NCBI GenBank assembly: GCA_021789895.1
Contig: JAJYIU010000019.1
Location: forward strand, 2,523 to 66,522
Origin: Acidobacteriota bacterium
GTDB lineage: Bacteria; Acidobacteriota; Terriglobia; Terriglobales; SCQP01
Direction of reading: 5' to 3'
DNA length: 64,000 nt
Numbering within the stretch: the first letter of the stretch is position 1; every line of letters starts with the position of its first letter. The notes below the pieces were generated by a model. It was not told where the DNA came from and searched no databases. It saw only the letters and a list, made by a program, of their open reading frames with translations. The translations under genes were made by a program, and so were the position numbers. This document shows, piece after piece, positions 2,443 through 63,550 of the stretch.

Positions 2443-3699
2443 TTATTGCGGAGTATAGTATCTCACCTGTGGCTGAACAAAAAACGCCTGGTTAGCCGGC
2501 ACGATATTCACATGCGCCCCGATGTTGTTGATCAGCGGGTGAGCGCCATTGCCGTCCGGACGCACCGTGGCCACATGTCCATGCGGCTGGTGCGGTTGCA
2601 CGGCGATGACCAGCCGCCCCTGATTGGCCAGTTGCTGGGCTACCTGTGCATTCACTTCCCGGTAGCGATCGCTGGCGGCAAGCTGTACCGCAATATCGTC
2701 GGCCAGTGCGGGCGCTCCATGCTGCGTCAGCGGAGCCAGCGGCGCGCCCACGGCGCGGGCAATGCGATAGGTGGCTATATTACAAAAGGTTTCTCCGCCG
2801 TGAGGATGCAAAGCGGGGTCGTTGCGCGCCGCATCCTGGGCATTCATCAGATTGGCCACTGCCGGCGAAGGCGCCGGCGCGGATGCTGGTGCCGATGCCG
2901 GCGCGGACGCCGGCGCAGACGCCGGGGCAGAGGCGGGAGAGGAAGCTGGCGCGGAGGCGGGCGCGGCGGTCACGTCATATTGATATAAATCGCTTCCCTT
3001 CATGATGCGCTTGAGTTTGGCGCCGTAATTGGGATCGGTGGCATAGACTCCCGTCAACGCGTCGGCAAAGCCATCGGGGTTGTTTTCCAGGCTGCGGGCG
3101 CGCCCATAATAATGCGAAGTCGCCAGCAGCCGCCCATGCTGGTCGAACGCATCCGCCAGCGAGACAAATTTGCGGAAACGCGCCGTGATGGTAATCCATT
3201 GACCGTCTTTATATTCCCGGGTTTTGGTTTCGACGAACGGCTGCCCGCCCACGGCTTTGATTCCGAAAGGATTGTTGCTGCCCGCCGGCATGTGCCGCCC
3301 CCAGCCGCTCTCCAGCGCCCACTGGGCCAGGGTCACCGCCGCCGGAATCTGCCATTTCTTGTCCGCCGCCTGGGCGGCGCCAATGACATTCAACGGGACC
3401 GGTCCAACCCCGGCCGAGGGCATCGCGCCGGCCGATCTCGCCGGCGCTTCCCCGGCCAGATAGCGAAACGTGGGACCGGTCGGAACAATCCTTCCATCCG
3501 GATGGGGCATGCGCAAGCCGCGGCTTTGCACCGCGTCAATGGCGCCGATCGTCAATGGCCCGCAAAGCCCATCCAACACCAACGGCCGCAGCGGCACCGG
3601 CAGCTTGGCGTTGATCAACCGCTGCACCGTGAGTACGTCATCGTGCCGGTTGGCGCAATCGCGGCCGACAGAACCCGATATGCTGGCTGGATCCGGCAT
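2443..3699 (-). CDS. Multidomain peptidoglycan hydrolase: PG_binding_1-like domain, glucosaminidase (FlgJ-type) domain, (PAS)n linker, C-terminal putative Cys/His hydrolase domain; no signal peptide
   Basis: N-terminus VLTVQRLINAKL...LDGLCGPLTIGAIDAVQ (PG-binding-like). AQWALESGWGRHMPAGSNNPFGIKA (glucosaminidase motif). APASAPASSPASAPASAPASAPASAPASAPAPSP linker. C-terminus GETFCNIATYRIA ... HGHVATVRPDG (Cys...His pair). Confidence 0.8.
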   Translation of the reverse strand: MPDPASISGSVGRDCANRHDDVLTVQRLINAKLPVPLRPLVLDGLCGPLTIGAIDAVQSRGLRMPHPDGRIVPTGPTFRYLAGEAPARSAGAMPSAGVGPVPLNVIGAAQAADKKWQIPAAVTLAQWALESGWGRHMPAGSNNPFGIKAVGGQPFVETKTREYKDGQWITITARFRKFVSLADAFDQHGRLLATSHYYGRARSLENNPDGFADALTGVYATDPNYGAKLKRIMKGSDLYQYDVTAAPASAPASSPASAPASAPASAPASAPASAPAPSPAVANLMNAQDAARNDPALHPHGGETFCNIATYRIARAVGAPLAPLTQHGAPALADDIAVQLAASDRYREVNAQVAQQLANQGRLVIAVQPHQPHGHVATVRPDGNGAHPLINNIGAHVNIVPANQAFFVQPQVRYYTPQ

Positions 3700-47358: not shown

Positions 47359-48549
47359 ATGAAAACCTTGCCAGACCTACACCTGGCGGAGGCTATGAGC
47401 CGCCTGGGCACGGAAGGCGCCTTCGAAGTGCTGGCGCGCGCCCGCCAGCTCGAAGCCGCCGGTAAGTCCATCATTCATTTGGAGATCGGAGAACCGGACT
47501 TTCCGACCCCGGCCCCCATACAAGCGGCTGCGGCCCAGGCCCTCGCCGACGGCTACACCCATTACACTCCGGCGCAGGGGCTGCCGGCGCTGCGGGAAGC
47601 GGTGGCCGAATACGTGAGCCGCACCCGCCGGATTGCGGTCGAGCCGGAGGAAGTCGTCATCGCTCCCGGGCTGAAACCGATTCTCTATATCGTCATGACG
47701 GCGCTGCTCGAGCCCGGCGACGAAGTCATCTATCCCGATCCCGGCTTCCCGATTTACGAATCGCTAACCCATTTTCTGGGAGCGAAAGCGGTTCCGGTGC
47801 AACTGCGCGAAGAGGCCAGCTTTGCCATGACCGCCGAAGACGTCGCCGCCGCGCTGACCCCGCGCACGCGCATGCTGATTCTGAACTCACCGCACAACCC
47901 CACCGGCGGCGTGCTGCCGCGCGACGAAGTGCAGCGGCTGGCGCGCCTGCTGGCCGAGCGCGACGTGGTGGTATTTTCCGACGAAGCTTACAGCCGGATC
48001 GTTTTCGAGGGCGAGCACCATTCGCTGATTTCCGAGCCGGGCATGCGGGAATGCACGGTGCTGCTGGACGGCTTTTCCAAGACCTATGCCATGACCGGCT
48101 GGCGGCTGGGCTACGGGGTGATGCCGAAAGCGCTGGCGCAGGCCGCGACCCGGCTGATGATCAACATAAATTCCTGCACCGCCGCGTTTACGCAAATGGC
48201 GGGGGTGGAGGCGCTGCGCGGCGATCAATCGGCGGTGGAAGCGATGGTGGGCGAGTTCCGGCGCCGGCGCGACGCCTGCCTGGCCGGGATACAAACCATT
48301 CCCGGCTTCCGCTGCCGCCCGCCGCACGGCGCGTTTTACCTGTTCCCGAACATCGAAGGCACCGGCTACGGCGCGCGCGAGCTGCAGCAGGCGCTGCTGC
48401 AGGAGGCCGGGGTCGCGGTGCTGGCGGGCACGGCGTTCGGGGCCAACGGCGAAGGCTTCCTGCGCATTTCGGTGGCCAACTCGCTGGAGAATATCGAACA
48501 GGCCATCGAGCGCATACGCAATTGGATCGCCGCCCATCCGCGAAAGTAA
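47359..48549 (+). CDS. Class I/II PLP-dependent (aspartate-type) aminotransferase
   Basis: IIHLEIGEPDFPTP, NSPHNPTGG, SKTYAMTGWRLGY (PLP Lys), LRISVANS. Confidence 0.92.
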   Translation: MKTLPDLHLAEAMSRLGTEGAFEVLARARQLEAAGKSIIHLEIGEPDFPTPAPIQAAAAQALADGYTHYTPAQGLPALREAVAEYVSRTRRIAVEPEEVVIAPGLKPILYIVMTALLEPGDEVIYPDPGFPIYESLTHFLGAKAVPVQLREEASFAMTAEDVAAALTPRTRMLILNSPHNPTGGVLPRDEVQRLARLLAERDVVVFSDEAYSRIVFEGEHHSLISEPGMRECTVLLDGFSKTYAMTGWRLGYGVMPKALAQAATRLMININSCTAAFTQMAGVEALRGDQSAVEAMVGEFRRRRDACLAGIQTIPGFRCRPPHGAFYLFPNIEGTGYGARELQQALLQEAGVAVLAGTAFGANGEGFLRISVANSLENIEQAIERIRNWIAAHPRK

Positions 48550-48563
48550 GCGGCGCCGCATGA

Positions 48564-48902
48564 GATGCTGGGCGAAGCGATAAGCATCGCTGGGCTTCGT
48601 TGTTTTTTCATGCTTTAAGCAAAACCTGCGGTTTTGCTATTGGCTCGGCAATCCTCATGTACGTCCATGTACACCAGGTCGCCTCGCGGCATTGCTAAAA
48701 GCAATTTCTGCGAAATTGCTATTGCGCCTCGCTCTGCTCGCGACTTCTCCTTTCGCAAAACCTTCGGTTTTGCTTGGCTTCGCCTTGACGTTACTGAATC
48801 GCGGAGGGTCGGGACCTGACAGGAAACCCCGACCTTCCCACTCGACCTCGGCATATCTAACTCCCATCGGTGGACTTGTGGACCGCCGCTATTTGCTGCC
48901 GG
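48564..48902 (+). repeat. Dispersed structured repeat, long copy (A)
   Basis: Blocks gatgctgggcgaagcgataagcatcgc, gctcggcaatcctcatgtac-tccatgtacac, cctcgctctgctcgc and ttactgaatcgcggagggtcgggacctgacaggaaaccccgaccttcccactcgacctcggcatatctaactcccatcggtggact are shared with 63305..63550. Copy A has three extra hairpin modules. Confidence 0.85.
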
Positions 48903-48965
48903 CGCCAACCGCGCCGGAAAACCGGTTTCGCTGAAACCGCAGGCGCCGGGGTTTACCCTGGAAAC

Positions 48966-51900
48966 ATGAGCGATCAGCGGCGCACGGCGGCCGGCCCAAC
49001 GCCGTTGGAGGAACTGGCCGGGCAGTTGCGCAGCCAGATAGCCGGCGAGGTGCGGACCGGGCTTGGCGACCGGGCGCTGTATTCCACCGACGCCTCGAAT
49101 TACCAGCGTTATCCGGTGGCGATCGTCACGCCGCGAACGGCGAGCGACGTGGAAGCCACGCTGGCGTGGGCGCGGCGCTACGGCTATCCCATCCTGCCAC
49201 GCGGCTGCGGCACCAGCCTCGCCGGGCAGGGATGCAACGCCGCGGTGGTGCTGGATTTCTCGCGGCACATGCGGCGCATTCTCGATCTGAATGCGGGACG
49301 CCGCCGGGCGCGGGTCGAGCCGGGGGTGATCTGCGATCAATTGCGCGATGCGGCGGCGGCGCACGGGCTGACCTTCGCGCCCGATCCGGCGACGCATTCG
49401 CACTGCACGCTGGGCGGCATGATCGGCAACAACGCCTGCGGCGCGCATTCGGTGATGGGCGGCAAGACGGTGGATAACGTCGAGGCGCTGGAGATTCTGA
49501 CCGCGGATGGGCTGCGGATGCGGGTCGGGCCCATGAGCGAAGACCTGCTGGACGCCGCCATCGCCGCCGGCGGAAGGACCGGAGCCATCTATGCCCGGCT
49601 GCGGAATTTGCGCGACCGCTATGCGGCGCTGATCCGGGCGCGATTTCCACGCATTCCGCGGCGGGTTTCCGGCTTCAACCTGGACGAATTGCTGCCGGAA
49701 AACGGCTTTCACCTGGCCCGCGCGCTGGTGGGCAGCGAAGGCGCCTGCGTGACCGTGCTGGACGCGGTGGTGCGGCTGCTGCCCTTCCCGGCGGCGCGCT
49801 CGCTCGCGGTAATCGGCTTCGAAAACGTCTATGCGGCCGCGGCCGCCGTGCCGGCCTTGCTCGAGCACCAGCCGCTGGCGCTGGAAGGCTTCGACGACGA
49901 GCTGGCGCAGAACGTGCGCAAGCGGGGCCAGGGGGCGAAATTGGGCGTGCTGCCGGCGGGCGCGGGCTGGCTGCTGGTGGAGTTGGGCGGCGAGACCTTG
50001 GCGGAAGCCGAAGAGCGGGCGCAGCGGCTGGCGAACACGATGGAGGGCCGCGCCGTGCGGGGGATACGCGTGTACAGCGATGCACCGCGGCAGCAGCGGG
50101 TGTGGGAAATTCGCGAATCCGGGCTGGGCGCGTCGGCCCGCGTGCCGGGCGAGCCGGATACCTGGCCGGGCTGGGAAGATTCGGCGGTAGCGCCGGAAAA
50201 GCTTCCCGAATACCTGCGCGAGCTGGCGGCGCTAAAGCAAGAATTCGGCTATAAAGGCGCGCTTTATGGGCACTTCGGCCAGGGATGCGTACACAGCCGC
50301 ATGAGCTTCCGCTTCCATACGCAGGCGGAAGTGGCGCAATTTCGCCGGTTCATGGAAAGCGCCGCCGACCTGGCGGTGCGCTATGGCGGCTCGCTTTCGG
50401 GCGAGCATGGCGACGGGCAGGCGCGCGGCGAGCTGCTGGAACGCATGTACGGGCGCGAGTTGGTGGAAGCGTTTGCTGAATTCAAGGCGATTTGGGACCC
50501 GGAAGGCGCCATGAACCCGGGGATGGTGGCGCATCCCTACCGCCTGGACGAGGATTTGCGTTTTGGGCCGGGTTTCCAGCCGATGCAAGCGGCCACGCGG
50601 ATGCATTTTCCGGAAGATCAGGACCAGTTCGCGCGCGCGGTGGCGCGCTGCGTCGGGGTGGGCAAATGCCGGCGGCCGGATACGGGCGCCATGTGCCCCA
50701 GCTACCAGGCGACGCAGGAGGAGCGGCACTCAACCCGGGGGCGGGCGCGGCTGCTGCTGGAAATGCTGCAGCCGGGACGGCTGGAAGGCGCCGGCTGGCG
50801 CAGCGAGGAAGTACGCGATGCCTTGGATTTGTGCCTGGCCTGCAAAGCCTGCAAGAGCGAATGCCCGACGCAAGTGGACATGGCCGCGTATAAGGCGGAG
50901 TTTCTGTCGCGCTATTATGCCGGACGCCGGCGGCCGCTGCCAGCGTATTTATTCGGCTGGGTGGATCAATGGGCGCGGCTGGGCAGTCTGGCCCCGGGCA
51001 TGGTCAACCGCCTGCTGCGGTCGCCGACGCTCGGCCCGGCGCTAAAGCATCTGGCCGGGGTGGCGGCCGAACGCAGGCCGCCGCAATTGGCCCGGCAGAG
51101 CCTGCAGGCTGGATTGCAAGCGGAAAAATCTAGGCGGCGGGCGGCGCAAGGCGAGATCGAACGGCAGGCGGAAGGCTCGCCGGGCGGCGAAGAAACACAT
51201 GCGCGCGAAGTGATCCTTTGGCCGGACACGTTCACCAACTATTTCGAGCCGGGGATTGGAATGGCAGCCAAACAAGCGCTGGAATCGCTGGGCTGGCGGG
51301 TGCGGGTGCCCAAGGGCCACCTTTGCTGCGGGCGCCCGCTGTACGACTATGGCTGGCTGGCGCCGGCGCGGCTGCGATTGCAGAAAATTCTGGAGCGGCT
51401 GCGCCCGGCAATCGAACGGGAACTGCCGCTGATCGTGCTCGAGCCCAGTTGTCTATCGGTTTTCAAAGACGAGCTGCTGCGATTTTTCCCCGACCATGAG
51501 CCGGCGCGGCGGCTCAGCCGGCAGGCGATGAGCCTGGGCGAATTCTGCCTGCGGCAGCGCTTGGATCTGGATTTCGAGCGTTACCGACGCAACCCGGGCG
51601 GCGCGGCCGCGCCGCGCCGGCGGGCGCTGGTGCACACGCACTGCCACGCCAAGGCCGGCGGCGCCGCCGCGGAGCAGCGCTGCCTGGCGGCGCTGGGCTT
51701 GGAAGTGGCGGAAATGCAAACCGGCTGCTGCGGCATGGCGGGCGGCTTCGGCTTCGAACGCAGCCATTTTGCAGTTTCGCAGACCGTGGCAGCACAGCGG
51801 CTGCTGCCCGCGGTCGAAGCCGCGGAAGCCGGCACACTGCTGGTGAGCGACGGCTTCAGTTGCCGGCAACAGGTGGCGCAGAATCTGCCGCGCCGGATGC

Positions 51901-52151: not shown

Positions 52152-52228
<77 letters not shown>

Positions 52229-55812: not shown

Positions 55813-55861
55813 TGAGGGCTCCGTCTTGCGATTATAGTGAGCGAAGAAGAAGCGCGGCATA

Positions 55862-56434
55862 GCAAAATGAGACACGTGGGGACGCCGCATGCGCCTAGAT
55901 TAACGAGATAAGTCTTGATTGCAGTGACATATGCGACATAGAAGCCAGAAAAAAGAGACAAACTGGCGTTTTAGAAAAACACTGCTTCAAATTTTTTTAG
56001 CAAAACGGCACCCGAGGCCTGAAATCGGGGTTAAACGCTCTAGTTTCAATGATTTGATCGGGTGCCGTTTGCAATTTAAAACGGCACCCGAAACGGCACC
56101 CGATGAGCAGAGTTGCTGCCACGGGGAGACGTTGATGCCGATATACACAATGGCAGCGATAAACGCGACATTGCAAAATGAGACACCCGCAAACCCGAAT
56201 GCATCAAGATAGGCAAGATAAGCCCTTATAGCAGTGACAGATGCGACGTAGAAACCAGAAAAAAGAGACAAATTGGCGTTTTAGAAAAACACTGCTTCAA
56301 ATTTTTTTAGCAAAACGGCACCCGAGGCCCGAAATCTGGGTTAAACGCTGTATTTTCAATGATTTAATCGGGTGCAGTTTGCAATTTAAAACGGCACCCG
56401 AAACGGCACCCGATGAGCAGAGTTATTGCCGCCG
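55862..56434. repeat. Two-copy tandem duplication (period about 310 bp) in AT-rich divergent intergenic region, with a 12-nt motif array
   Basis: Copy 1 is 55862..56124 and copy 2 is 56173..56434, roughly 90% identical by eye from agataag onward. AACGGCACCCGA occurs at 56004, 56080, 56092, 56314, 56390 and 56402. It is inverted at 56058 and at 56368 (one mismatch). Confidence 0.9.
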
Positions 56435-56468
56435 GGAGGACGGCACCGGCTTGGATTACCATCGAGGC

Positions 56469-57755: not shown

Positions 57756-59786
57756 TCAACCGGGCGGGGGTTCATACACTTCCAAGCCGACCGATTGCAT
57801 CAGCTTTAAAGCATTGCTGGAGCGGGCCACGCCGGGCAGAAGGCGGTAATCGAAGCAGAGCTGTCCGGCCTCGAAGCGGTCGTCGAAATGGAAGTTGCGC
57901 GCCGCCGCGACGGTTTCCGGAATTTGCGCCAGCGCCAGGTCGTGGGTGGTAACCAGGCCGAGGGCGCCGCGGGCAAGCAGGGCGCGGGTGATGAGGCGGG
58001 CGCCGGCATAGCGGTCGTGGGAGTTAGTGCCGGAGAGCAACTCGTCCAAGAGAAAAAGCAGCGGGCGGGGGCCGGCGGCGAGATCGGCGAGCAGCTTCAG
58101 GCGGCGGATTTCGGCATAAAAGCGGGAGACGCCGCCCTGCAGGGAATCGAGCACGCAGATAGAAGCGCCGACGGCGAGGGGCGAGAGGCGCAGGCGGCGG
58201 GCGCGCGCCGGGGCTCCGCACTGAGCCAGCACGGCATTGATGCCGACGCCGCGGAGAAAAGTGCTTTTGCCGGCCATGTTGGGACCGCTGATCACCAGCA
58301 GGCGGGTTCCGGCATCGAGCCGCAGATCGTTGCCCACGGCGCGCGATTCCGGCAGCAGCGGGTGCGCCAGCGCTACGGCCTCGAACAGCGGGCCGCCGGC
58401 GGCAAATTCGGGCCAGACATCGCCGGGATGCTCCCAGGCATAGCCGCCGAGCGAGGCGAGCGCTTCCAACTCGCCGACGGCGGCCAGCCAGGCGCGCACC
58501 GCGGGGCCGAAATGCCGCCGCCAGTTTTCCACTCCCAGCGCCAACAGGGCGGCGTAGAAGACGAGCGGCGACAAGGGCTGCAGAATCAGATTGCGCCGCG
58601 ACTCGAGGCTTTCGACCAGGCGCCGCAGGCGCGCGACCGCTTGCGCCGGCGCGGCGCCGGCGGCGATCAGATCGTGGCGCAGGCGGCACAGAGCGGGCGC
58701 CTCGAATGCTTCCTGCTCGATCAGCGCCAGCACGCGCGCCAGCGGCCGCAAGTCCGCGGCAACGCTCTCGACGGCGGCGATGGAGGCTTCGACGCGCGGC
58801 TTGAGCAGGCGGCTGAGGCCGAGATTGAGCAGCGAGACGAGCAACAGCGGCAGCCAATTCCAGGTTGCGAGCGCAAAGACGGCGGCAGCCAGCCAGAGCG
58901 CGGCCAAGGGCGCCAGCAAAGCGGCTAAAGCCGGAATGCGGCGAAAGAGCGGAGGCGAGGCGCCCCAATCGGCAAACGCTTCGGGCAACGAGGCGGGAGG
59001 CACGCGCGGGGCGTTGTTTGGCGCAATTCCTGCGGAATTGCTTGAATTGGGCGCAATTCCTGCGGAATCGTTTGAGCCTGGCGCAATGCCTGCGGAATTG
59101 CTTGAGCCTGGCGCAATGCCTGCGGAATCGCTTGAGCCTGGCGCAATTCCTGCGGAATTGCTTGAGTTGGGCGCTATTCCGGTGGAATTGCTTAGCTTGG
59201 GCGCGATTCCGGCGGCAGGGGTTTTGCCGGGCGCCATGCCGGCGCTGACGGCGAAGAGGCGCTCGCGGAAATCCAGGCGGGCGCCAAGCTCGCGCGCGGC
59301 CGCCTGGCGGCTCAAGACGATTTCCGGCAGAGCGGGCGCGAGCAGCCAGGCGGCCAGGGTGGCTTCGCCGGCGCGGGTGCGGGCGGCACAGAGCAACTCG
59401 AACAGCGAGCCGGGGCCGAACAGATCGAGATCGCGCGCATAAGGATGAGCCGGGTCAAGGAAGTTTTCGCCGCCGGCGCCGGCGCCTGCCCAGCGGTCTT
59501 CCAGCCGGGCAAGGCCGCGCGCGTAGAACTCCAGGCGGGATTGGCTGCGGCGCAGGCCGCGGAGCAGGCGCTCGTGCGCGGCGATCATGGCCACCAAGCC
59601 GGCGGCGGCAGGAACCAGCAGCGGCGCCAGCCAAGCGGAATGGCGCAGAGCGACGGCGGCGAGCATGGCGGCGGGCACATAGGCGAGCTTGGCGTAGCCC
59701 AGGCGGTCGCTCCAGCACCGGCGGCGGGCTACCAGCACGCCGAGAGCATCCAGTTGACGGCGGTAAATGGCGGCGGGGGATTCCAT
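57756..59786 (-). CDS. Membrane-anchored MutS-related protein (MutS domain V ATPase, no mismatch-binding or Smr domain)
   Basis: LLVISGPNMAGKSTFLRGVGINAVLAQ (Walker A). LFLLDELLSGTNSHDR. TTHDLAL. N-terminal and central hydrophobic helices. DLDLFGPGSLFELL core motif. Confidence 0.85.
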   Translation of the reverse strand: MESPAAIYRRQLDALGVLVARRRCWSDRLGYAKLAYVPAAMLAAVALRHSAWLAPLLVPAAAGLVAMIAAHERLLRGLRRSQSRLEFYARGLARLEDRWAGAGAGGENFLDPAHPYARDLDLFGPGSLFELLCAARTRAGEATLAAWLLAPALPEIVLSRQAAARELGARLDFRERLFAVSAGMAPGKTPAAGIAPKLSNSTGIAPNSSNSAGIAPGSSDSAGIAPGSSNSAGIAPGSNDSAGIAPNSSNSAGIAPNNAPRVPPASLPEAFADWGASPPLFRRIPALAALLAPLAALWLAAAVFALATWNWLPLLLVSLLNLGLSRLLKPRVEASIAAVESVAADLRPLARVLALIEQEAFEAPALCRLRHDLIAAGAAPAQAVARLRRLVESLESRRNLILQPLSPLVFYAALLALGVENWRRHFGPAVRAWLAAVGELEALASLGGYAWEHPGDVWPEFAAGGPLFEAVALAHPLLPESRAVGNDLRLDAGTRLLVISGPNMAGKSTFLRGVGINAVLAQCGAPARARRLRLSPLAVGASICVLDSLQGGVSRFYAEIRRLKLLADLAAGPRPLLFLLDELLSGTNSHDRYAGARLITRALLARGALGLVTTHDLALAQIPETVAAARNFHFDDRFEAGQLCFDYRLLPGVARSSNALKLMQSVGLEVYEPPPG
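59020..59215 (-). repeat. In-frame 30-bp tandem repeat (about 6.5 units) inside the MutS-related gene
   Basis: Units start at 59020, 59050, 59080, 59110, 59140, 59170 and 59200 (ggcgcaattcctgcggaattgcttgaRYYg). They encode the (S/N)SNSAGIAPG decapeptide array. Confidence 0.9.
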
Positions 59787-62465: not shown

Positions 62466-63335
62466 ATGAGCGCTACAGCGCAACAACTTTATCAGCAGCA
62501 GTTGGAGTCCATCATCCTCGCGGGCGAGGAGCTGAATTTTCGGCGCGCGGCGGCGCGGCAAGGGATTTCGGAAGCCACGCTGCGGCGGGTGATTGCGGCG
62601 CAGGAGGCGAAATTAGGCTACGCGCTATTCCAGCGCGCCGGCCGCGGGCTGCGGCTGACCCCCGGCGGAATCGAGTTTCTGCAGCACGCGCGGCGGCAAT
62701 TGTTGCGCGAGCTGAGCGGCGCCGCGAAGCAGGCGGAGCAGCGCCCGCTGCTGGTGGGCTACTCGCCGCATGTCAACCCCGCGCTGCTGGTTTGGCTGCG
62801 CCGCCAGTACGCAATCCAGCGGCAAAGCTGCCGGACGCTGAGCCTGGGGTCGCTCGAGCAGGCCGGGCTGGTGCGCGACGGGTGGCTGGATGCCGGGCTG
62901 GTGCTCTGCCCGCTGGCGGCGGTGGGAGTGAAAATTGCGCCCAGCTTTTGCGAAGCGCTGCAGGTGGCGCTGCCCGCCCGGCATGCGCTGGCGCGGGCGG
63001 AGAGGCCGCTCGAAATCGCCGAATTGCGCGGGCTGCCGATGATCGGCCTGGCGCAACACCTGCACCGGCCGCTGGCCGCACGCTTTCAGCAAATCTGCCG
63101 GCGGCACGGGCTGGAGCCGGAAATCGCCGGCGAGGCGCTTCATATAAGCGAAGCCATCGCGCAAGTGGCGGCGGGCAAGGGATTCTGTTTTGCGCGCGGC
63201 TGCGACCAGCGTTTTGCCGGGCCGGGGGCGGCGTTTCGCCCGCTGGCGGGCACTCCGGCGGTGATCCTTACCGGGATTCTCTTTCGCCACGGCGCGGAAT
63301 TGCCGATGCTGGGCGAAGCGATAAGCATCGCATAG
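62466..63335 (+). CDS. LysR-family transcriptional regulator (paralog of 61178..62125)
   Basis: LESIILAGEELNFRRAAARQGISEATLRRVIAAQEAKLGYALFQRAGRGLRLTPGG. The last 10 codons lie inside repeat copy B. Confidence 0.85.
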   Translation: MSATAQQLYQQQLESIILAGEELNFRRAAARQGISEATLRRVIAAQEAKLGYALFQRAGRGLRLTPGGIEFLQHARRQLLRELSGAAKQAEQRPLLVGYSPHVNPALLVWLRRQYAIQRQSCRTLSLGSLEQAGLVRDGWLDAGLVLCPLAAVGVKIAPSFCEALQVALPARHALARAERPLEIAELRGLPMIGLAQHLHRPLAARFQQICRRHGLEPEIAGEALHISEAIAQVAAGKGFCFARGCDQRFAGPGAAFRPLAGTPAVILTGILFRHGAELPMLGEAISIA

Positions 63336-63550
63336 CTTCGTTGGTTCGTCGCTCGGCAATCCTCATGTACATCCATGTACACTGCGGTTGCCTCGCGCCT
63401 CCCGCCTCGCTCTGCTCGCTTCTCCCTTCGCCTTGGCGTTACTGAATCGCGGAGGGTCGGGACCTGACAGGAAACCCCGACCTTCCCACTCGACCTCGGC
63501 ATATCTAACTCCCATCGGTGGACTCGTGAGCCGCCGCTAGATGCTGCCGG
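63305..63550 (+). repeat. Dispersed structured repeat, short copy (B)
   Basis: Collinear with 48564..48902 but lacks its three hairpin inserts. About 95 nt around the 11-bp hairpin ggagggtcggg/cccgaccttcc are identical. Confidence 0.85.

Follow-up and report, generated by a model that had tools for sequence, protein, structure and literature searches.

How did seven head-to-tail units of 30 nucleotides (nt), all in frame, come to lie inside a gene for a predicted membrane-anchored MutS-family ATPase? The gene belongs to an Acidobacteriota bacterium and was found in a 64,000-nt stretch of its DNA, hereafter the window, which stems from a short-read metagenome assembly. We consider it probable (about 0.72) that the array began as an in-frame insertion of a hairpin module resembling repetitive extragenic palindromic (REP) sequences, was expanded by slippage, and persists as a tolerated linker in the MutS-like protein. 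The gene, the insertion and the units of the array are as follows (aa, amino acids; ORF, open reading frame).

57756..59786, minus strand: gene for a membrane-anchored MutS-family ATPase of 676 aa, with core and ATPase domains only (ORF, Pfam)
59010..59237, minus strand: extent of the insertion, 76-78 codons relative to homologs, boundaries uncertain by about 6 nt
59013..59222, minus strand: seven in-frame 30-nt units, aa 189-258, pattern (S/N)(N/D)S(A/T)GIAP(G/N/K)(S/N/L)
aa 189-198: unit TPAAGIAPKL
aa 199-208: unit SNSTGIAPNS
aa 209-218: unit SNSAGIAPGS
aa 219-228: unit SDSAGIAPGS
aa 229-238: unit SNSAGIAPGS
aa 239-248: unit NDSAGIAPNS
aa 249-258: unit SNSAGIAPNN
59223..59252, minus strand: decayed eighth unit AVSAGMAPGK, aa 179-188, GC-rich, with 15 of 30 nt equal to the consensus

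The array itself is well defined. Tandem Repeats Finder (TRF) placed it at 59020-59215 with a period of 30, 6.5 copies, 86% matches and a score of 243 (an alternative 60-nt reading scores 280), and a repeat search of the window recovered seven copies at a spacing of exactly 30 nt. Together with the translation, these results confirm the original prediction of seven tandem 30-bp units, in frame within a MutS-domain-V gene. Its range of 0-5 substitutions per unit proved slightly low: the distance to the consensus is 2-4 nt for every unit but the outermost, where it is 10 nt, and among the outer units it spans 4-10 nt. The three central units are only 1-2 nt apart from one another, and the centre of the array appears to be young or under homogenisation, as slippage would give; the recent expansion by slippage that had been predicted is consistent with this. 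AGIAP is invariant in all seven units. Since the codon differences among units comprise 13 non-synonymous and 9 synonymous changes, constraint on the encoded peptide is weak. The decayed eighth unit precedes the seven others in the protein, and part of it may be native. At a TRF score of at least 80, the 64 kb contains a single further tandem repeat, at 2860-2964 (period 24/36). It lies in frame in ORF 2443..3699 on the minus strand, where it encodes (APAS)n, a linker of Pro, Ala and Ser, within a 418-aa product that looks like a cell-wall hydrolase. Being GC-rich and non-palindromic, it is an ordinary low-complexity linker and stands in contrast to the array in the MutS-like gene.

Base composition sets the array apart from its host gene. 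GC content at third codon positions (GC3) is 0.51 in the array, as opposed to 0.82 both in the rest of the gene and in the ortholog. The array composition therefore looks foreign, and fits imported non-coding DNA better than duplicated native codons. Along the array, GC3 starts at 0.9 in the decayed unit and drops to 0.4-0.5 for the central and 3' units; because it is highest in the 5' units, these are likely to be the older ones, having drifted towards host usage.

Comparison with homologs points to the same origin outside the gene. When the 120 best proteins (the window protein and 119 others) are aligned, the segment from E175 to W274 holds exactly 20 residues in 119 of 119 homologs and 98 in the window protein, and nothing in the native loop of the homologs resembles the array sequence. 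The array is therefore an insertion unique to this lineage, and not a conserved structural motif, an outcome that had been named beforehand as one that would count against the original prediction. The cluster to which the window protein belongs holds one protein. Its closest relative, P0002 (66% identity, 603 aa), lies at a syntenic locus and lacks the insert: P0002 reads FRERLGAAGERLRAEVSPDALTAWGE, where the window protein has FRERLFAVSAG, then 76-78 aa, then PRVPPASLPEAFADWGA. The genes at the P0002 locus run LysR, Amidohydro_2, MutS_V, GFO_IDH_MocA and arabinofuranosidase (ASD1), so that the neighbours are shared with the syntenic ortholog; those of two more distant homologs differ, and no operon partner emerged from the loci compared. 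In one complete Acidobacteria genome, a LexA gene (L104:7811-8413) lies convergently after the MutS-like homolog P0011; none of the three remaining loci examined shows this adjacency, which is probably coincidental.

An insertion of this size into a loop of family-invariant length might have inactivated the protein, leaving a young pseudogene in which stops have not yet accumulated, and in DNA of high GC content, where stops are rare, an open frame is weak evidence of function. Several observations speak against this. The 2031-nt ORF is full length and retains all family-invariant residues, including the Walker A and Walker B motifs, and the 5' units have had time to approach the codon usage of the host with no loss of integrity in the remainder of the gene. 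In an AlphaFold model (built from 22 sequences, mean predicted local distance difference test score, pLDDT, of 72), pLDDT drops to about 27 over residues 186-265 between confidently modelled helices, and the insert forms an external disordered loop. The encoded peptide is rich in Ser, Asn, Gly, Ala and Pro, and (SNSAGIAPGS)n is probably a disordered cytoplasmic linker. We consider it very unlikely that the gene is already dead.

What, then, was inserted? The core of the unit is a 19-nt palindrome, GCAATTCC-TGC-GGAATTGC on the plus strand, in which two 8-nt arms enclose a 3-nt loop (8+3+8), and hairpins of related form occur between genes of the same window.

59023..59041, no strand assigned: perfect palindrome GCAATTCC-TGC-GGAATTGC (hairpin search, fold)
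59143..59161, no strand assigned: second perfect palindrome, sequence as at 59023 (hairpin search, fold)
48619-48637, 48701-48719 and 48755-48773, plus strand: three perfect intergenic hairpins of the form GCAA-NNN-C/loop/G-NNN-TTGC (hairpin search)

As DNA, the palindrome with its 8-bp stem and 3-nt loop folds at -6.9 to -8.6 kcal/mol (z -2.5 to -3.7), and for the array mRNA an unusual degree of structure is predicted (z=-5.5). In the cores at 59053, 59083, 59113 and 59173, 6-7 of the 8 pairs remain, without compensatory changes, and this loss of hairpins without compensation argues that neither DNA nor RNA structure is under selection in the gene copy. The three intergenic hairpins, which read GCAAAACC TGC GGTTTTGC at 48619, GCAATTTC TGC GAAATTGC at 48701 and GCAAAACC TTC GGTTTTGC at 48755, lie between ORF 47359..48549 and a gene starting near 48870-48966, and their stem differences are compensatory. 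Chance does not account for the palindrome in the unit: the window has 6 matches to the pattern GCAANNNCNNNGNNNTTGC, three of them clustered in one intergenic element, against 0.28 expected. Perfect 8+3+8 hairpins number 13 in the whole window, and 5 of these have the form GCAA-NNN-C/loop/G-NNN-TTGC.

Beyond the window, the same hairpin belongs to a dispersed family. A scan of 185,579 species-representative genomes for GCAATTYCTGCGRAATTGC returned at least 101 stretches. Among the matches listed, 43 of 101 came from Acidobacteria bacterium YP1.bin64 (JAKASR01), on more than 20 contigs (19-mer scan), and others from the Acidobacteria metagenome-assembled genomes ZJ1.bin67, DX2.bin61, gp2 AA84 and palsa_123; at least 62 exact copies of the 19-mer lie in 43 blocks of 8 kb. 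The arrays of YP1.bin64 are head-to-tail, with 1-4 units and with 29 of 30 spacings equal to 32 nt. The YP1 unit, GGCGCAATTCCTGCGGAATTGC-CGGCTTGCCT, and the window unit, GGCGCAATTCCTGCGGAATTGC-TTGAGCCT, have a 22-nt core in common and share TTG..CCT in the spacer, so that their identity extends beyond the 19-mer that was searched. By blastn, the window array is 79-84% identical to intergenic YP1 arrays over 90-125 nt, with E-values down to 6e-22. The array unit is thus homologous to a dispersed, mostly intergenic hairpin family of Acidobacteria. Single 19-mer matches in DX2.bin61, gp2 AA84, palsa_123 and Thermoanaerobaculia, which lie inside long ORFs, were set aside as chance or near-chance, as were those in genomes outside the Acidobacteria (about 10 are estimated for a 19-mer in 596 Gb). 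The match at locus L054 is apparently in a PAS-like coding segment, judged by a peptide motif only.

The hairpins in the window and at L103, the locus of P0002, were placed by the genes called around them, and lie between genes. For the YP1 loci we used a mask based on GC content by codon position, as a six-frame open-frame test does not discriminate in high-GC DNA; 0 of 118 hairpins fell in coding-like DNA under this crude mask, which flagged 61% of bases and called the window array coding-like, possibly in a different frame. At L103:3798-3816, an intergenic hairpin, GCAATTTC-AAA-GAAATTGC, stands between AAA_25 and LysR genes. This genome carries the insert-free ortholog P0002, and the repeat family is therefore older than the insertion event in the MutS-like gene. 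The array, the composite element of the window described below and the YP1 element are all without a match in Rfam, and we found no description of a GCAA...TTGC hairpin repeat family.

These data bear directly on the origin that the original prediction had implied, namely a de novo variable number tandem repeat in which native loop codons were duplicated by slippage, with no relation to dispersed repeats. Such an origin would account for an array that is tandem, in frame and near-identical at its centre, and the first decayed unit does overlap native-looking sequence (...SAG..., against ...AAG... in the ortholog). However, it leaves unexplained why the 22-nt core is identical to a repeat found on many contigs of other Acidobacteria, why the hairpin shape recurs in an intergenic element of the window, why GC3 is unlike that of duplicated native codons, and why the native loop of 119 homologs holds no similar sequence. 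Derivation of the dispersed copies from the gene is implausible as well, given that genomes with an array-free ortholog carry hairpins. We regard de novo duplication as highly improbable. The array is real, but the palindrome and the dispersed hairpin family together indicate that repeat DNA was inserted and that native coding sequence was not duplicated.

Some of the intergenic hairpins are themselves parts of larger repeats, of which the window holds two diverged copies.

48560..48891, plus strand: composite dispersed repeat carrying three hairpins (alignments, blastn)
63317..63550, plus strand: second composite copy, without hairpin modules (alignments, blastn)

Both copies contain the hairpin GGGTCGGGACCTGACAGGAAACCCCGACC, and homologous composite elements occur in ZJ1.bin67, whose version is about 80% identical to the window copies, and in YP1.bin64. 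One position in the composite is occupied by GCAATTCCTGCGGAATTGC in ZJ1.bin67 (stem ATTCC) and by GCAAAACCTTCGGTTTTGC at window 48755 (stem AAACC), and is empty at window 63290. Since this slot can hold different hairpins or none, the hairpin module is a facultative cassette in a larger repeat, amplifying in tandem. In YP1.bin64 the composite element is about 260 nt long and highly conserved, with the hairpin as part of it; it is seen at L004:2930-3250, L036:5995-6260, L057:6890-7260 and about 40 other loci of that genome. It starts with CGGCTCGGCCGCTTTTAC and ends with CGACTCGGCCGTTAACGC, a terminal similarity that is direct and not inverted, and it contains 1-4 of the 32-nt hairpin units and a GGGACCTAATAGGAACCCC hairpin, with a second hairpin, GCAATTTC-TYY-GAAATTGC, about 90 nt downstream. 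The YP1 element may be a miniature inverted-repeat transposable element, a REP cluster or a small RNA gene.

Could a repeat of this kind have been threaded into the gene by the assembler, or its unit number be wrong? The assembly is built from short reads, the unit is a dispersed repeat, and the three central units are very close in sequence. The European Nucleotide Archive (ENA) contig k141_1383293, the only second record of the region, shows that the risk is real elsewhere: its collinearity with the window ends exactly at the composite copies, at 48564 and 63539, and the composite element probably breaks or mis-joins metagenome assemblies. Against an artefact at the array, both junctions are in frame, and the decayed, GC-enriched edge units, which are found nowhere else, are not expected from mis-joined canonical copies. 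The gene and array are identical in the ENA contig and the window, although the two may not be independent assemblies, and the differences between them are confined to other dispersed-repeat zones. An artefactual array is, to our minds, close to negligible as an explanation.

Two further observations concern the same contig. Two copies of about 282 nt, which lie 311 nt apart and share 87% identity, form an AT-rich tandem duplication at 55850-56442. It takes up the whole intergenic region that separates the divergent genes for an arabinofuranosidase-like protein and a GFO/IDH/MocA oxidoreductase, a region of only 145 bp at the ortholog locus L103. Of the 17 mismatches between the two assemblies, 8 lie inside the duplication. 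A tRNA-Met (CAT) gene at 52152-52228 on the minus strand directly follows a 1082-aa FAD/Fe-S oxidase-like ORF.

For the insertion of a REP-like module, we propose the following course of events. One or a few copies of a module of about 30-32 nt, built on GCAATTCC-TGC-GGAATTGC, would have reached the gene, whether through transposition, through recombination or through template switching, and the array would then have grown by slipped-strand or hairpin-promoted replication slippage. While the gene remained under selection, a version could have persisted only if it was free of stops and its period was a multiple of three (30, not 32 nt), and the 30-nt period and the total of 78 codons would be the expected residue of selection for an open frame. 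The 5' units, in gene sense, would since have decayed towards the GC-rich codon usage of the host, with the central units still being homogenised. The encoded linker would be tolerated and not selected, that is, selfish DNA in a protein-coding gene.

Several points weigh against this reading. The period is 30 nt in the gene and 32 nt in YP1.bin64, and the units are thus homologous but not identical. In the roughly 70 kb of source-genome sequence covered, which holds the array and three intergenic hairpins, the ATTCC stem occurs only inside the gene, while the intergenic stems are AAACC and ATTTC. The codon-level comparison with P0002 revealed no target-site duplication or other recognisable scar of transposition. 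No GTAG or CGTC tag stands beside the stem, which is flanked by GGC... and CGGCTTGCCT or TTGAGCCT, and a crude motif filter for HUH/Y1 transposases found none in 52 loci (8-kb blocks) and the window, its three candidates being unlike transposases. The number of near-identical central units could have been mis-assembled from short reads, and the neutrality of the insert is itself inferred.

Whether the linker is more than tolerated depends in part on where it sits in the protein, for which the domains and predicted transmembrane (TM) segments of the host are needed.

57786..58295, minus strand: MutS domain V ATPase, aa 498-667 (Pfam MutS_V, PF00488, E=1e-21)
58260-58286, within MutS domain V: Walker A motif GPNMAGKST (invariant columns of the homolog alignment)
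59574..59705, minus strand: first predicted TM hairpin, aa 28-71 (Kyte-Doolittle 2.01 for 50-71; model helices 4-47 and 51-95)
58797..58940, minus strand: second predicted TM hairpin, aa 283-330 (Kyte-Doolittle peaks 2.29 and 1.86; model helices 284-308 and 312-358)

Both hydrophobic hairpins have K/R-rich flanks and short, uncharged turns; in the second, which lies just downstream of the insert in the protein, the turn is TWNW. The number of TM segments is even, the charges follow the positive-inside pattern and the ATPase must face the cytoplasm, and for these reasons we infer that the N-terminus, residues 71-282, among them the array, and residues 330-676 are cytoplasmic. The array was predicted to lie between the MutS core-like region and TM helices, and Pfam, alignment and hydropathy bear this out for the second hairpin. 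It would fall between the core helices (H171-182) and that hairpin, roughly in the lever/clamp region, if the canonical MutS layout (PMC12292046) is used as the guide.

A selected role is conceivable for an array in such a position, if the number of units determined how far the MutS core lies from the membrane anchor and the array served as a tunable linker or contingency locus. Near-identical central units make slippage plausible, module copy number varies from 1 to 4 between loci elsewhere, and the invariance of AGIAP could be taken as a sign of selection on the peptide. However, the length polymorphism that had been thought likely was not observed: no second strain was found, metagenome contigs gave 0 matches when scanned for the array unit GGCGCAATKCCTGCGGAATYGYTTGA and 0 matches when scanned for any array of the hairpin with a 30-nt period, and the array in the ENA record is identical. 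On-off switching of the gene is not possible with a period that is a multiple of three; by prediction the array faces the cytoplasm and is not surface-exposed; the loop is rigidly 20 aa in 119 homologs, so that its length is normally constrained and not tuned; and the excess of non-synonymous differences shows no strong constraint on the peptide. We judge an adaptive, tunable linker to be unlikely.

The host protein was predicted to be a 676-aa MutS-V ATPase without mismatch-binding and Smr domains, and Pfam and NCBIfam agree. Pfam searches of the protein gave no match to MutS_I, MutS_II or Smr, and only a weak one to MutS_III (aa 126-177). The NCBIfam MutS1, MutS2 and KamC models match the ATPase region alone, all far below their cut-offs, and the equivalog level is not reached for MutS1 (NCBIfam MutS, 99.7 bits against a cut-off of 480) or MutS2 (TIGR01069, 85.9 bits against 400). 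The protein nevertheless has the hallmark of the MutS family, an ABC-type domain V ATPase with Walker A and B motifs, GPNMAGKST and DELLSGT, both invariant in the homolog alignment. The nearest solved sequences are the Taq and Escherichia coli MutS proteins and Thermus MutS2, over the ATPase (PDB MutS match, 1e-22), and Foldseek searches with the model returned MutS and MutS2 as top matches over core and ATPase. The family is large, with 3519 matches that come mostly from Acidobacteriaceae, the best from Acidobacteriaceae and Terracidiphilus metagenome-assembled genomes. A role in a defence system was rejected, as PADLOC gave only a P-loop-level mad3 match (E=0.0085).

The second TM hairpin (58797-58940) occupies the place of the lever and clamp (domain IV) insertion of MutS1 and MutS2, which suggests, from the model and published domain boundaries, that a membrane anchor may have replaced the DNA clamp in this MutS-like family. 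The bacterial MutS3 and MutS4 subfamilies, which are uncharacterised, have an architecture of this kind (Lin, Nei & Ma 2007, PMC2190696). Like MutS2, MutS3 and MutS4 (PMC2190696), the host protein is bacterial and combines a MutS core with an ATPase without a mismatch-binding domain; unlike MutS2 it has no Smr/KOW tail, and unlike all three it has two TM hairpins, the second at the place of the clamp domain. By its domain layout, the architecture is compatible with MutS3 (MutSac near the C-terminus, with or without MutSd). A literature search returned nothing specific on TM-anchored MutS proteins or on the host family.

The case shows how protein sequence can arise from a small hairpin repeat of intergenic origin, here 78 added residues in a loop of family-fixed length, and what trail such an event leaves: a palindrome in every unit, foreign codon usage and decayed array edges. 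It also points to a modular repeat family of Acidobacteria that coincides with breakpoints of metagenome contigs. Should unit number vary between strains, the locus would provide naturally graded linker lengths for the study of an uncharacterised MutS paralog with a membrane anchor. The finding holds no new principle, and says nothing on the role of the MutS-like family. A broader proposal is that the GCAA...TTGC module is an undescribed, tag-less and self-amplifying palindromic repeat of Acidobacteria, arranged head-to-tail as a facultative cassette and able to colonise coding sequence, and that its landing in a MutS gene reflects a mechanistic link between hairpin repeats and proteins that sense DNA structure, and not chance. 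A MutS paralog as landing site would agree with the excess of intragenic REPs that has been reported for genes of replication and repair, but taken as a whole we hold this proposal to be doubtful.

How does the array compare with known systems? Like arrays of bacterial interspersed mosaic elements (BIMEs) and REPs, and like mycobacterial interspersed repetitive units (MIRUs), the window family consists of small dispersed units whose tandem number varies by locus (1-4 in YP1.bin64). MIRUs are 40-100 bp long, intergenic and non-palindromic, and BIMEs have alternating REP orientations. In-frame palindromic insertions are known above all from Rickettsia, where Rickettsia palindromic elements (RPEs) are the classic example (PMC10969869). 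As with RPEs, a palindromic dispersed repeat lies in frame in a conserved gene and adds a loop or surface peptide, the gene is intact and its orthologs lack the repeat; the window insert is likewise confined to the gene of one lineage, keeps the frame and forms a predicted loop compatible with the fold by pLDDT. RPEs were reportedly described in frame in protein-coding genes by Ogata et al. in 2000. They are single elements of about 100-150 bp in Rickettsia, CGTC-tagged in some families, whereas in the acidobacterial window insert a 30-nt hairpin module is repeated in tandem, and its sequence is unrelated to theirs.

The closest parallel is with REPs inside ORFs, which Di Nocera et al. 2013 described in many species, with clusters encoding 43-82 aa, often in replication and repair genes, and for which a flexible-linker, neutral placement has been suggested (PMC3733652). 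The original prediction had called a hypervariable insert unexpected in such an enzyme, which was overstated, as intragenic palindromic repeats are documented, many of them in genes for replication and repair (PMC3733652). Like intragenic REPs (PMC3733652), the window family has 8-bp stems and short loops and is dispersed, mostly extragenic and sometimes in ORFs; in the broad sense of the term it is REP-type, a short palindromic stem-loop unit with many dispersed copies (YP1.bin64), mainly extragenic. REPs of the GTAG and CGTC types are tagged and mostly form head-to-head dimers, with head-to-tail arrangement rare, and GTAG REPs are accompanied by REP-associated tyrosine transposases (RAYTs), whereas the window family is tag-less and head-to-tail, with no transposase identified in the sampled blocks. 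The repeat family thus lies outside the definition of GTAG/CGTC REPs, and the window case matches the phenomenon of intragenic palindromic repeats in every respect tested. In-frame insertions of palindromic repeats were already known, and to these the array adds a case in a MutS-like host gene.

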